Part shown: positions 24,001-36,000 of the stretch, piece by piece
How positions within the stretch are numbered: position 1 is the first letter of the stretch
Layout of the letters: each line of letters begins with the position of its first letter
Virus record (IMG/VR): IMGVR_UViG_2529293036_000024
Reading direction: 5' to 3' (one strand)
DNA from: a virus
Lineage: Duplodnaviria; Heunggongvirae; Uroviricota; Caudoviricetes
DNA: 39,162 bases
Position numbers: made by a program

Positions 24001-27000
24001 AAACACTTGCAAGATACGGTTATACCGGAGCAGCCCGCCCTCAGGGGGACTGGCAGACATCCGCAGCGCTGACACGCCAACAATACGACGACTGGCGAAC
24101 CAGATATTTGCCCCGCGTGGCAAGGCTGGCTGACCTTGGGGAGAACAACAGTCTGATGAATGCACAGCTTGCACGGGTGGGAGGCCTTGCCACTTCCAGT
24201 CTCCGTACAGCGCAGATGGCGCAGGATAACCAGATGGCGAGATACGGGGTAAACCGCCCGGATAATCCCGACAGTAATACGCTGGGGTTACGTAATGCCC
24301 TGGCAATTGCTGGCGCGAAAAATGGTATCCGTGAAGCCGAACAGGATCGCCAGATGAATATTCTGACGGGGGCTTCTGCACCGGCAAGACAGAAACTGAG
24401 TGTTGGCGGCCAACTGGTGGCAGCGTAAGGGGGCAATATGGGATACGGTTTACTGGATATTGCAAATCAGTCGCGGCGTGAGGCATTACAGGGAATAAGT
24501 GACGCAGACAGACGACGTGAAGAAATTGAGGCTGCGAACAAACAGATGGCGGCGCAACAGAAAGCGCAGAACAAGCAGAATATCGGTACGGGCATTGGTA
24601 CGGGGGCGGCTATTGGCGCATCCGTTGGTGGTCCTGTTGGTGCTGTTGCTGGAGCAGTAATTGGCGGCATTGCTGGTTCTTTGTTTTAAGGAGTGGTGAA
24701 TGAGCGGATTTGCACAGGGGTTACTTGCCGGATTCAGCACCGTTGACCAGGCAATGACCCGTCGTAAGGAGCTTGGTCTGCGTGAAGCACAGCTTGCCCG
24801 GCAACAGAAAAATAACGAGCGCGATTTTGAGTTTGCGCAGTCTCAGTTTGAACATAATAAAAACGTTGATCAGCGGAACTTTGATTACAGAGCCAAAGTT
24901 GACGACCGTAATTATGCACTGAAGGAAAGGGAGTTTAACGCTAACCAGAATTACCGGAATGCGTCACTGGGTATGGAGCAGCAGCGACTCCAGTTGCAGA
25001 AATACAACCAGCGACGGCTTGAGTATAACGATATGATTGCCCATAGCCAGCCACTAATGGAAGCGCTTGGAAAAGCAATTGAGGCTGGCGATCAGGAGGC
25101 TGCAACGCGTCTGTTCGGGCAGCTGCCAAAGGGACATCCATTAATTCTTATGTCAAACGAAGGCTATGCAGCGAAAGCGGGTCAGGCCGTGATCAACCTG
25201 CAAAAAATCTTTGGTGATAAGCCGGACATGGCGATCGATTCGCTGAATACCCCGGAAAATCTCGATGTGCTTTCCGGCGTGTTTGCCCCGGAACTACAAC
25301 AGCGTATTGGCATGCCTGATTCAACCGGGGACAAAACGATAAAAGAGGCCAGGATTGGCAGTATCGTACCAGCGCAGCAGGAAGGGTACGTACTTATTGG
25401 CCTTGATCTCACATACAGCGATGGCTCCACCGCGCATAAACCTGTAACAGAATACGGCAGTGCGCACCCTGATGATCAAACCGTGCTGGCGATACCCGTT
25501 GATAAGGCTATCGCTCAGGTCAGGGATCGCAGCAAATTTGCAGAGATATCGAAAAATTATGGTTATTTTATGCCGAAGCAGCAGGGACTTTCTCTGAAAG
25601 AGCTTCAGAAGGGGGCCAGCAACGTAGCGGCGGACGCGATCAAGAATGGCGGTAATGCTCAGGCTGCGGTGGATGAATATTATGCTGCGACTGGTTCACA
25701 ACCGCATCAACAGAAAATTCAGCAACAAAAACTTCAGCAACAGGTTATCAACTGGGCGGGAGATGATCCTGATAAGCTGTCATTTGCCAGAAATGTAGCG
25801 GCCCGTCAGCCTGAAATGCTGGAACCTCAGAATCAGAAATTGCTGGAGAACGGGTATGCGAATTTTCTCCGTATTCAAAAGGCCAGGGGGGAACAGGCCA
25901 GAGATGAAAGTGCTTCATCTGCATCTCAGTTTATCCGTGGACTGAAACAGAATTACGCCCAGTAATTCACGATATTCCATTAATACCATTTCCTGATGCC
26001 CGGCCATTGTGCCGGGTTTTTTTATGGAGTCTGTATGGCCTATTCAGAGGAACAGCGTCCTGAGGCGCAACTCGGTAACCAGAATCGTAACAGCCTGAAC
26101 ATTCAGCAACCCGGCGAAACTGACAGCTATGAAGCATTTTTCTCTGATCCGAATCGCTGGAAGGATAACAGTACGTCGTTCAGCCTGGGCGATGTATTGC
26201 CAACAATGGGTAAAGGTTTCGCCCAGTCCGTCCGGGGAACAGGGGAAATGGCCCGTGGACTCGGTGATGCGATGATTCAGAGCCCGGTAAAAACAGGGGC
26301 GCGTATTTTAAATGAGTTCAGCCGTATGGGGCTGCCGGGTGTCGCAACTGTGCAGGATATTTTTGCCGGTGGCAGCAGGGGGGCTGATGAGGTCATCGAT
26401 ACCCTGCCTGATGGCAAAAACGCGGTTACTGATACTGTCGGTAAAGGTCTGAAGGCAACCGGTAAGGCTGTCAGTGATGGTGCCAAAGCCACTGATGAAT
26501 GGCTGACCGGTAAGATGTCGCCGGGTGCAGTTCGTGCGCTGAATACGCCGATGACCGAAGGCTATAATGATTCTGCGGTCTGGGTGGCGAAGGGTGTAAA
26601 CCTGATTGGTGCGCTTGTACCTGATATGGTTGCTGGCGGTGTGGCTAGAAAGGTGGGTGATGTCACACTGCGAAAAATGCTGACCGCCGGGCTGGAGAAA
26701 AAATACATCGCGGCAGGGATGCAGCCGGAAAGAGCCACGGCACTGGCAGCAGAAGCTGTCGATAAAAAAATGCCGGATTTATTCCAGGCGGGCCTGATCA
26801 CCCATTCCACTGTAAGTGCACAGGGGCAGAGTGCAATGGCGGCAGCAGATGCTGTTCTTAATGCTGATTACTCTGAGCTGGCGCAGTCACCGAAATTTCA
26901 GCAGACGTTTTTGTCCATTGACGCCGACCCGCAGCACGCACAGCTTACTGATCGCCAGAAAATGGATCTGGCAAAAGAGCGTGTTGCCGATGAGGTGCGC

Positions 27001-33000: not shown

Positions 33001-36000
33001 GGCCAGCAGAAGGAAATGGATCGCCTTGTCTCACTGGCGAAGGGGGGATGGAAAGGCCAGAGTATCGGTGCATGGAATTCGTTCCTTAACCTTGTCGAGG
33101 ATGCCAACGGTGCGGTTGAAAACGCTCTGCGTCTTTCTGCCTATAAGCACGCCCGTGATGCCGGTTTGTCACGCCAGCAGGCGGCGTCTCTTGCCAAAAA
33201 CATGACGGTGAACTTTAACCGTCGTGGTGAGCAGGGGGCGCTGATGAATTCGCTGTACATGTTCGCCAACGCCAGCATTCAGGGAACGGCAAATCTGGTG
33301 AGAACGCTCGGACATCTTAATGGTGAGGGACCTTTACTGGAGCGCCTTCGCTGGAAGAATCTGAATGTTCCGCAGAAAATCGCGCTTGCCGCTGTGGGAG
33401 CAGGTTATCTGCTTGGCTCGCTTAACCGCAGCGTGGCGGGTGAGGATGATGACGGGGTTAACTGGTATGACAAGGTGCCGTCTCATGTGAAAGAGCGTAA
33501 CCTCGTCATTATGAAATCGGTGTTCGGGGGCAAGGCCGGAGAGTACTGGAGTATTCCTCTGCCTTACGGGTACAACGTTTTCTTCCTGCTCGGGCATACT
33601 GCTGAAGGTGTGGCGGCGGGTGACCTGACGGCGTCCCGTGCTGCCGGTAATGTTGTTGGTGGTGTGCTTGGTGCATTCAGCCCGATTGGCAGTGAGACGT
33701 CGGAAACACTGTCCGGGGCATTGCTGAAAAATGCAGCGCCGACCATTCTGCGTCCGTTTGCGAACCTTGCCATGAATGAAAACTTCATGGGGGCGCAGAT
33801 TTACCAGGAGAACATGCCGTTTGGTACACCAAAACCTGACAGCCAGCTGGGAAGACGTTCAACGCCAGAAGCGTACAAGGCGTTTGCATCCTGGCTGAAT
33901 GCGTTCTCAGGTGGCAGCCAGTACCGTCCCGGCGCGGTGGATATCACACCGGAATCGCTGAAATTCTGGATTGACTATATCTCCGGAGGGACAGGGCGCT
34001 TCATTTCCAAAACCACGGATGCGGCGGTGAAATCGCTGAATGGTATTGATATACCGGAACAGCAGGTGCCCTTCCTGGGGAAAATTTCGGGGGAGGTGAT
34101 GCCGTATGCAGACCAGCAGAAGATGTACGACCGGATGACAGAGATTGCGCAGTATCACGCAGAGCTGAAGAGTCTGACCGGTGCAGAAAGAACGGCGTTC
34201 ATTGACGAGAACAACGGAAAATTGTCGATGAACGGGCTTATGCAGGATACCCGGAAGAGACTGAAGGATTTGCGTAAACAGCGTGATGCCATTTACGCCG
34301 ACAGTACTCTCAGTCTGGCGCAACAGTCGGCGATGGTGAAATCGGTAGAGCGGGATATGAAAATTGCCGTGGATCGGTTTAACCGCGAGTACAACAAAAA
34401 AGTGGGAGTGGATTAACAGAAATGGCCCCGTACGGAAGTGCGGGGCTGATTAAGAAATAAACACTCATTGACCTGTAATAACCGGAGCTATTAACATATA
34501 GTCAGAAGAGCATTTCATGTGATACAGAGAGCCGATTTATGTTTAATGAAGAAAAAGTTGCGCAAATGGCAGCGTATTTGCTGAAAAAGCATGGCGGATC
34601 TATGCGTTTCATTAAGCTGAAGCAGCAACGGTAATGGCGAATAGCATTTATGAGCAAAATAATCTTGATATGTTATTAGGCGATCTGATGTAACCGGGAT
34701 GATGTTCACCCCTTATCGCCGGGGAACAATACCGGCAATCAGAATTGCGGATGGAACTATTCAGGCCCACGATGATATCGATGAGGAGTTTTTTCAGCCA
34801 GTATTGGATGGCTTTCTTATATCCAAATATACGCCATTTGACATCCTCCACGCCCTGAAGGACGGGGTTTTACAGCGCACCGGATAAGATTCGGTGTTTT
34901 GTTGAAAAATACTGTGATAACAAACAGAAAACCCGTCAGTAAGACGGGCTTAGCAAGCTGGGACGGTTACTTTAATAATTTCAGTGCCTTTACATCCACT
35001 TCAACACTGCTCAGGTCTTTATCAATTTCACCCTCAATTCTTACTTTGTCTTTCGGAGAAACATTCTGACCGGCCCATATGCTGTCATCGATATCCGTGA
35101 CAATTGTCCCGCTATTGTCACGAAACTCATAACGTTCATCACCCACTTTTTTAACGATGCTCCCTTCAAGGATAACCCATGCATCATCCTTCAGTTCTTT
35201 TGCCTGCGCTACTGTTGAACGCTCTGCTTCAGGCCCTTGGAAACCGCCCTGCTGTGCAAAAGCGCCAAAAGACACACCAGAAATAAGTGCTGCAATCAAT
35301 ACCTTTTTCATTCATAGTCCTCTTTCAGAGATGAACATTCAAACAGCATTTTCAGTATGGTAAAGCGCGGGTGCGTTGAGGATGCCTGACACATCAGAGG
35401 TGGCGGGAGATTACTCCCCCGCTTGGTCTCTTACTTCTCAGATTCGTAGTCTACGAAGACAGCGACCTCCGTCTGACCGGTTCGGATTCGCACCTCGCAG
35501 AGGTCTTTCCTCGTTACCAGTGCCGTCACTATGACGGTTAAACAGATGACGATCAGGGCGATTAACATCGCCTTTTGCTGCTTCATAGCCTGCTTCTCCT
35601 TGCCTTTCGGCACGTAAGAGGCTAACCTACATGTGTTCAGCATGGATTGAGCCTCAGATTAATGTTAAGCGTCTTGCCGGACGCGTAATGTTAACTGGGG
35701 CTTTTCTCTATCTGCCGTTGGTGTTCATGCCCGAGGCAGATAGCCTCAAGCACCCGCAGCAATTCTACTTAACTCTCCTTTTCCCGCAAACCGTTTTTAT
35801 CTCCAGCGACAAATCGAATACACAACCAGCACCACCGCCATTACTGTTCCTACATTTGCGAATGCTTCAGGCCAGGTCATTGATTCACCTTCTGCTCAAT
35901 ATTTTTAAGGTCATTTTCCGCATACAGTATTGCAGTTCTTGCTGCCCGCAACCGTGCTTTGGTGTTCTTTTCTTCACGCTCGAGGCTGGCAACAGATTCT

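Follow-up and report, generated by a model that had tools for sequence, protein, structure and literature searches.

The closest described relatives of the gene examined here come from Shiga toxin (Stx)-converting phages and from the wider class of phage polyvalent proteins. In phage Sp5, ORF80 (ECs1242) was singled out as unusually large, at 2,793 residues, and as essential; its deletion mutant formed DNA-filled heads but gave no plaques and did not bind an anti-tail-fibre antibody, and the gene was assigned to tail formation, with a reported match to the AAA+ family COG1483 (Mondal et al., 2016). In phage phi24B, the corresponding gp47 (vb_24B_48) was abundant in purified virions but invisible in the cryo-EM (cryo-electron microscopy) map; it was proposed to be an encapsidated ejection protein with LPD5, LPD1, LPD38, and MuF-C domains (phi24B bioRxiv preprint, 2026). 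The LPD5, LPD1, MuF_C, and LPD38 families were themselves defined from polyvalent proteins (Iyer, Burroughs, Anand, de Souza and Aravind, 2017). The stretch of DNA analyzed here (the window) is the 39,162-nt caudoviricete virus record IMGVR_UViG_2529293036_000024, and its giant gene (Table 1) is 100% identical over all 8,382 bases to that of the Stx2 phage VT2-Sakai/Sp5, of an Stx1-converting phage, and of many O157 prophages. DNA identity to the giant gene is at least 90% in 186 Stx phage records, and the product shares 97% protein identity with phi24B gp47.

We consider it probable that the product is a head-packaged internal giant of the 933W/Sp5-type Stx phages, belonging to the polyvalent class and acting as the largest member of an ejection set, in the role of N4 gp50 and T7 gp16. 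The preliminary description of this DNA, made from the sequence alone, had predicted a virion-packaged protein, and proteomics of the near-identical orthologue agrees: the whole gp47 chain occurs in phi24B virions, at 11–35 copies and outside the ordered capsid and tail. According to the supplement of the phi24B preprint, gp47 gave 10,962 peptide-spectrum matches (PSMs), a total exceeded only by that of the capsid protein; its maximum lay in the uppermost gel slices, higher than the slice of the portal, and its copy number was estimated at 11–35 per virion. Since the recovered peptides extend from residues 133–145 to residues 2484–2504, each with 24–95 PSMs, the whole chain must be present; the peptide sheet gives totals rather than per-slice counts and does not permit fragment mapping. 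A related giant protein of Burkholderia phage JC1 has also been found in virions. Ejection and catalysis are putative for the giant protein, which is most likely injected into the host together with the DNA.

Profile searches recovered more than two unrelated domains in the one polypeptide, LPD families among them and all above the Pfam cut-offs: LPD5, LPD1 (residues 1361–1440, 84 bits), MuF_C (64.2 bits against a cut-off of 27.6), and LPD38 (164 bits). Together with the location of the gene among virion genes, these matches bear out the earlier assignment to the polyvalent class, and the protein is presumably delivered into the recipient cell with the DNA. PHROGs places the giant protein in a separate family, and its last ~950 residues are common to phage proteins of 3,400–4,650 residues, including some labelled ‘DarB-like’. 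A sequence search of the whole protein against PDB chains returned nothing, PADLOC recognized no defence family in it, and Pfam searches of slices at E ≤ 10 gave no curated peptidase family for either HExxH segment, with sub-threshold M76, M13, SprT, and DUF6782 matches that we regard as noise. The low-complexity region between the N-terminal domain and LPD5 includes an acidic/Gln-rich stretch around residues 500–575 and a Pro/Gly/Ala-rich stretch that peaks at residues 726–800 and extends by eye from roughly residue 700 to 905. The 50-residue windows starting at residues 726 and 751 contain 30–32% Pro plus Gly, in line with the Pro/Gly-rich linker that had been described ahead of the HExxH motifs.

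The two HExxH motifs noted in the preliminary description are HEWFH at residues 1284–1288 (nt 29884–29898) and HEIIHH at residues 1551–1556 (nt 30685–30702), 267 residues apart, where the His and Glu content of the protein predicts 0.036 such motifs by chance. Each lies in a zincin-type fold or family and has conserved candidates for the third ligand, rather than belonging to a non-catalytic fold, and the zincin reading therefore stands for both, with the amendment that motif 2 is really an HExxxH variant. The nearest fold neighbours of the HExxH regions are zincins that cut proteins or peptides (MtfA, Pro-Pro endopeptidases, anthrax lethal factor, IrrE, Spartan/Wss1, and ArdC), and the region around motif 1 has a zincin fold. 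In this first domain, the motif is invariably HEW[FWLM]H among ~75 homologues at 36–62% identity, and the conserved residues are H1263, H1284-E-W-F-H1288, D1291, E1375, and E1382, of which H1263, D1291, E1375, and E1382 are each at least 90% conserved. The NCBIfam model NF041907 (CLCA_X) matches residues 1182–1437 with 148.6 bits (E 2e-43) over model positions 3–245 of 250; as this score is below the NCBI cut-off of 260, zincin 1 is a relative of CLCA_X and not a certified member. CLCA_X is a predicted zincin family, rich in phage and plasmid members, with an Asp after the HExxH (Lenart et al., 2013). Zincin 1 shares this HExxH…D signature, with a full-length model match around HEWFH, but differs in being embedded in a giant protein beside LPD5.

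The same cassette also occurs outside phages. An 872-aa protein with LPD5, LPD1 of the CLCA_X type, and a second HE..H domain (HEAFH) stands alone in a conjugation locus for a type IV secretion system (metagenome contig ERZ842375 NODE_437, L006:1-22619), which encodes VirB4/TrbE, TrbL, SLT, M23, Fic, and a relaxase of the MobA/MobL type. Phage and plasmid transfer systems thus have the protease cassette in common, and because this locus has its own SLT and M23 wall hydrolases, the 872-aa protein points to a role in the recipient cell and not in wall digestion.

Zincin 2 appears to be the most constant element of these giants. A HMMER scan of 1.84 billion representatives with this domain found 350 clusters, mostly within proteins of 2,000–6,000 residues, and an alignment of 44 sequences was made from the query, 36 giants, and seven short proteins of ~210–340 residues. 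In this alignment, H1551, E1552, H1555, and E1607 are the sole invariant columns of the entire protein. The family motif is RHE..xH[HY]GL … AEE..A..AE, that is, HExxxH, so the HExxH first recognized at motif 2 was a lucky reading of this variant; when aligned without gaps, the Stx sequence HEIIHH contributes H1556 as the second histidine of HExxxH. In most of the sampled giants, the domain is located ~0.9–1.2 kb of protein before the C-terminus, with a range of 260–2,100 residues across the set. The strands and the HE helix were modelled with a predicted local distance difference test (pLDDT) score of ~80–94, and the Glu helix with a score below 65. Zincin 2 has no significant Pfam family, and its profile gave a chance match only against the PDB. 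The spacing and the EE..A.. motif resemble what we take to be the pattern of peptidase M49 (DPP III; HExxGH…EExxAE). Peptidase_M49 was absent from the Pfam matches listed at E ≤ 1 for 15 sequences of this domain, and membership in M49 was rejected.

The MuF_C match requires a correction of its label. In the defining paper, MuF_C is PBECR, a predicted RNase of the BECR fold (Iyer et al., 2017). The phi24B preprint labelled the MuF-C domain a metallopeptidase and built on that label the idea of peptidoglycan degradation. We rejected the metallopeptidase assignment given the definition of the family; the real zincin sites are at residues 1284 and 1551. H1752, H1801, and S1816-V-Y-G are conserved in nine PBECR copies, and H1752 and S1816 may map onto the catalytic positions of PBECR.

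The N-terminal domain links the giant protein to the virion RNA polymerase (vRNAP) gp50 of phage N4. The domain contains the most hydrophobic helix of the giant protein (residues 181–199), is closed by a conserved glycine zipper (residues 409–427, nt 27259–27315), and was found in 20 of the 36 giants sampled. A word-indexed search with the N-terminal 450 residues reached close enterobacterial relatives only; more distant ones were drawn from the giants found through zincin 2. The resulting profile aligned with N4 gp50 residues 299–440 over 141 columns (hhalign probability 92%, E 5e-7), and the score of 57.6 compares with a maximum of 20.4 among 40 shuffles that preserved local composition. BLASTP of the whole giant protein against N4 gp50 found nothing. 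According to the N4 paper, the N-terminal domain of gp50 binds lipid, is proposed to be part of an inner-membrane complex, and is followed by a low-complexity linker of ~100 residues.

The C-terminal module is widely distributed. The model of residues 1840–2793 is confident and mostly helical (pLDDT 81.6, predicted template modelling score 0.77), and in BFVD it has structural counterparts at the ends of dozens of giant viral proteins, at TM scores up to 0.83. Upstream, these relatives carry cargo such as an LT_GEWL lytic transglycosylase, RelA/SpoT, or a methylase. By tblastn, the module was found in 355 phage records, which include Stx phages, ~100 Vibrio phages (41% identity), Ralstonia phages, Bcep22-like Burkholderia phages, Bacillus megaterium podophages, and the Methanosarcina virus MetMV. 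The MetMV protein (3,002 residues, L005:5584-14592) has an LPD38 module (Pfam E 1e-40) and 28% identity over 88% of the query; the module thus crosses the divide between bacteria and archaea and very different cell envelopes. The MetMV giant gene follows a mid-sized gene, as in the bacterial phages. The Gly/Ala-rich hydrophobic segments described earlier in the C-terminal third were recovered at residues 2449–2467 and 2515–2533; they are moderately hydrophobic (Kyte-Doolittle 1.0–1.2 over 19-residue windows), and neither reaches a typical transmembrane score. Identity with P1 DarB was considered and rejected, as the N6-adenine methyltransferase and helicase domains were not found in Pfam or NCBIfam searches and only the LPD38 region matches the ‘DarB-like’ PHROG.

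The giant protein contains no cysteine in 2,793 residues, compared with 0.96% cysteine in the other open reading frames (ORFs) of the window (P about 2e-12). Cysteine is also absent from 32 of the 36 giant homologues, from BcepMigl gp16 (4,658 residues), and from the Vibrio D62 protein (3,066 residues), and the short stand-alone copies of zincin 2 contain it. Among the N4 proteins, the ejection proteins gp50, gp51, and gp52 have none, and gp53, gp54, and the portal have some; no mention of cysteine was found in the N4 paper. The absence of cysteine could be a general signature, in composition, of proteins that pass through the tail and the periplasm. The loci concerned are window 26035-34413, L003:2781-16757, L004:5506-14706, and L008:9524-25195.

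Four genes directly upstream of the giant gene look like candidate partner ejection proteins. Cysteine is missing from their 150-, 83-, and 421-aa products, and glycine-zipper segments are present in those of 243 and 83 aa. The glycine zipper of the 83-aa product (24438–24689) is strongly hydrophobic and C-terminal (GTGIGTGAAIGASVGGPVGAVAGAVIGGIAGSLF), and given its position this product may be a small membrane-inserting virion protein. The phi24B preprint counts gp51, gp50, and gp48 among the virion proteins but does not include them in its structural model, and there gp49 (‘bacteriocin’) was weakly detected and set aside as a contaminant. The 421-aa gene corresponds to Sp5 ORF79, which is essential and has the same mutant phenotype as ORF80 (Mondal et al., 2016). 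The order of small, medium, and giant genes parallels that of N4 gp52-gp51-gp50.

Table 1. Coordinates of the giant gene, the domains of its product, and adjacent features in the window.
Feature	Position (nt)	Strand	Details
Four upstream genes	23248..25965	+	243, 150, 83, and 421 aa; phi24B gp51, gp50, gp49, and gp48
Terminator-like hairpin and T7 run	25998..26024	+	Hairpin 25998-26017, then T7; overlaps ATG 25996
Giant gene	26035..34416	+	2,793 codons plus stop; Sp5 ORF80/ECs1242, VT2-Sakai orf71, phi24B gp47
Conserved N-terminal domain	26485..27354	+	aa 151-440; homologous to N4 vRNAP N-terminal domain aa ~299-440
Low-complexity linkers	27385..28749	+	No family match
LPD5 domain	29185..29634	+	aa 1051-1200; 153 bits; modelled at high confidence
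Zincin 1, CLCA_X / phage MPTase (metallopeptidase) type	29578..30354	+	aa 1182-1440; Pfam LPD1 covers the C-terminal part
Zincin 2, HExxxH…E clade	30451..31026	+	aa 1473-1664; H1551, E1552, H1555/H1556, E1607 (nt 30853-30855)
MuF_C = PBECR (BECR-fold, RNase-like) domain	31282..31551	+	aa 1750-1839; Pfam
C-terminal ~900-aa helical module	31687..34413	+	aa 1885-2793; includes LPD38 aa 2476-2681 (nt 33460-34077)
Hairpin directly after the stop codon	34424..34447	+	-20.5 kcal/mol, z -5.5; without U-tract

Taken together, the domain map suggests a division of labour within the protein. The N-terminal domain, which has a hydrophobic helix and a glycine zipper, would form a chassis together with the invariant HExxxH zincin and the LPD38 module of ~900 aa; this chassis would serve encapsidation and exit via the tail. 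Once the needle is released, the cysteine-free chain would leave the head loosely folded, after the small cysteine-free proteins encoded upstream, and its N-terminal domain would anchor in the inner membrane, as in N4. The variable middle, with LPD5, the CLCA_X zincin, and the RNase-like PBECR domain, may be cargo delivered to the newly infected cell, and the zincins might cut either the polyprotein into working pieces or host targets. The upstream genes and the giant gene would then form an ejection cassette analogous to N4 gp52-gp51-gp50 and T7 gp14-15-16.

Several points weigh against this account. Ejection, membrane insertion, proteolysis, and RNase activity are proposals for the giant protein and for its close relatives alike. 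The failure of the Sp5 mutant to bind the tail-fibre antibody (reported as data not shown in Mondal et al., 2016) is not obviously explained by a purely internal protein. The copy number derives from spectral counts and spans a three-fold range, and because very large species predominate on the gel, the protein is unlikely to be extensively processed within the virion. In structural terms, the helix carrying E1607 was modelled at low confidence, and a Foldseek search of the C-terminal model against the PDB found no fold relative (best E 0.26). Moreover, hhalign comparisons of the C-terminal module and zincin 2 with the C-terminal domain of N4 gp50 (residues 2100–3500) were not significant, and the absence of cysteine is a correlate and not proof, as the major head protein of N4 has none either.

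The alternative drawn from the Sp5 work is a tail-assembly or tail-structural protein, which would build or hold the tail instead of being injected. The grouping of ORF80 with three other ‘tail formation’ genes by Mondal et al. (2016) favours it, as do the normal-looking, DNA-filled heads of the deletion mutant that the anti-tail-fibre antibody did not bind. We nevertheless regard it as quite unlikely, because the phi24B tail is built from the portal, two adaptors, the nozzle, lateral fibres, and the needle, without gp47, which, abundant as it is, was seen neither by cryo-EM nor by negative stain. At the estimated copy number it would amount to about 6 MDa, too much to be hidden in a short tail, and the tail loss could be secondary, for example through a portal vertex that is unstable when internal proteins are absent. 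The COG1483 match reported in the same study would make the protein an AAA+ ATPase driving some step in the formation of the tail; this is hardly credible, as neither Pfam, NCBIfam, nor PADLOC identified an ATPase family and the 2,793 residues contain no GxxxxGK[ST] Walker A motif.

The protein could also be chiefly a carrier of anti-defence effectors, a ‘DarB-like antirestriction’ protein that DNA delivery could do without and that would count only where the host has the corresponding defences. Effector cargo is what the polyvalent-protein concept predicts, the C-terminal module is common to the ‘DarB-like’ proteins of Bcep22-type phages, and the protease cassette is also found in conjugative elements. 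This seems unlikely to us as the main function, since the gene is essential for plaques in Sp5, the parts that are invariant are the chassis and not the cargo, and searches recovered neither the methyltransferase and helicase domains of P1 DarB nor any PADLOC family. It is very unlikely that the metallopeptidase domains digest peptidoglycan so that the conduit can reach the inner membrane, as proposed in the phi24B preprint. Podophages do have to breach the wall, and the rest of the late region has no annotated activity for this, but the MuF-C metallopeptidase of the preprint is an RNase-like PBECR domain according to the defining paper, and the fold neighbours of the HExxH regions are zincins that cleave proteins or peptides. 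In addition, the conjugation locus with the same cassette already has wall hydrolases of its own (SLT and M23), and where related giants need an enzyme for the wall, they instead have a lytic transglycosylase domain.

The window contains a single uninterrupted open frame on the + strand at 25996..34416, with 2,806 residues from its first ATG. A GGAG at 26026–26029, six bases 5′ of the ATG at 26035, makes the latter the likelier start, giving 2,793 codons up to the stop at 34416 as initially described, because the alternative ATG at 25996 is buried in the upstream hairpin; 2,793 residues is also the length published for Sp5 ORF80. The gene is located at the end of the late region, as had been claimed, 3′ of virion and tail genes on the same strand (terminase, portal, major head protein, collagen-like tail fibre, and nozzle-type genes). 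Sp5 ORF80, VT2-Sakai orf71, and phi24B gp47 are this gene at the same site, following the 421-aa gene, and the annotated start alone differs (25996-type or the ATG at 26035). The suggestion that it forms its own terminator-flanked transcription unit held in part: the upstream hairpin with its T7 run is terminator-like, but the downstream hairpin has no U-tract, and a separate unit is unsupported since no sigma-70-like promoter was found upstream of the gene. In lambdoid Stx phages, the late genes are transcribed from pR′ under Q antitermination, and a separate unit for the giant gene is therefore not needed.

The phi24B record annotates three antisense ORFs within the giant gene (L002:6192-6515, 8667-9047, and 9398-9769), and similar antisense ORFs occur by chance in the giant gene of the window. 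In the phi24B virion proteomics table, ORFs in other frames inside the giant gene have at most two spectral matches each, so the antisense ORFs are probably not genes. The flanks of the window match Stx2-converting phage I and run into wrbA, and the window is accordingly the right-hand 39 kb of an Stx2 prophage integrated at wrbA. Bases 1–131 are outside the otherwise 100% match to Stx2-converting phage I, which starts at base 132, and by comparison with VT2-Sakai the window starts close to the 3′ end of stx2B. Between 14839 and 16875, G+C rises to 0.61, with a strong A-over-T skew at 15–17 kb; the jump and the skew fall where the lateral tail-fibre gene has its collagen-like (Gly-X-Y) repeats.

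Shiga toxin genes are spread by Stx phages, in which the giant gene is essential and takes up about 14% of the genome. The phi24B preprint (2026) lists among its open questions how many copies of a 300-kDa protein are packed together, how they pass out through a short tail, and how they act in the cell, and the domain map provides experimental targets in the two conserved zincin sites, the RNase-like domain, the N4-like N-terminal anchor, and the helical C-terminal module without a solved relative. The gene, its essentiality, its polyvalent-protein domains, its virion location, and both zincin variants as classes were already known. Our additions are modest and comprise the N-terminal link to N4 gp50, the recognition of the HExxxH site as the single most conserved feature of the family, the placement of motif 1 in a CLCA_X-type zincin, a correction to how MuF_C is labelled, the rejection of the assignment as an ATPase, the lack of cysteine across the family, and the broad occurrence of the C-terminal fold, which extends to an archaeal virus. 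As a tentative and rather doubtful extension, 933W/Sp5-type, Bcep22-type, Vibrio, and Ralstonia podophages, and even the Methanosarcina virus, may share one hitherto unrecognized ejection machine, in which the N4-like anchor, the HExxxH protease, and LPD38 would be constant, the cargo inserted between the ends would be interchangeable, an essential self-cleavage after ejection by the invariant protease would free the cargo, and the absence of cysteine would be a usable signature of tail transit.

Compared with the phage-type polyvalent proteins of Iyer et al. (2017), the giant protein has the expected organization, with several unrelated domains in one giant polypeptide encoded among virion genes. 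It holds LPD5, LPD1, LPD38, and PBECR (MuF_C), and its two MPTases are exactly the two variants of that paper, one in which strand 2 ends with a His and HExxH is followed three residues later by an Asp, the other of the HExxxH form. It differs in having none of the hub cargo that many members typically carry (ART, SNF2 ATPase-methylase, and ArdC-N) and in being essential in Sp5, which would be unexpected for a pure effector carrier. The Bcep22-type giants Bcep22 gp75, BcepMigl gp16, and JC1 gp69 (‘DarB-like antirestriction’) share the C-terminal ~900 residues at 27% identity, with an HE..H motif (HEAFH) ~150 residues upstream of this module. They are also free of cysteine, likewise have their genes where the morphogenesis module ends, and are virion-associated by mass spectrometry, and the portal, capsid, and head-closure proteins of these phages are related to their 933W counterparts. 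On the other hand, they are larger (about 4,500–4,660 residues), carry different cargo, and by BLASTP have no LPD5/CLCA_X region and no N-terminal match.

Among the classical ejection systems, T7 gp16 differs in its lytic transglycosylase domain, for which the giant protein has no counterpart (no SLT or lysozyme family in Pfam), although some relatives of its C-terminal module have LT_GEWL. The comparison with N4 gp50 is closer. The Stx giant has no RNA polymerase domain (no polymerase family in Pfam), its estimated copy number is higher than in N4, and the partner proteins of the two systems are not detectably related. Nevertheless, both proteins are giant, cysteine-free, packaged in the head, and invisible in reconstructions; both begin with a partly homologous N-terminal domain followed by a long low-complexity linker, and both have a zincin ahead of a large C-terminal region. 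In both phages, smaller cysteine-free virion proteins, gp51 and gp52 in the case of N4, are encoded before the giant.

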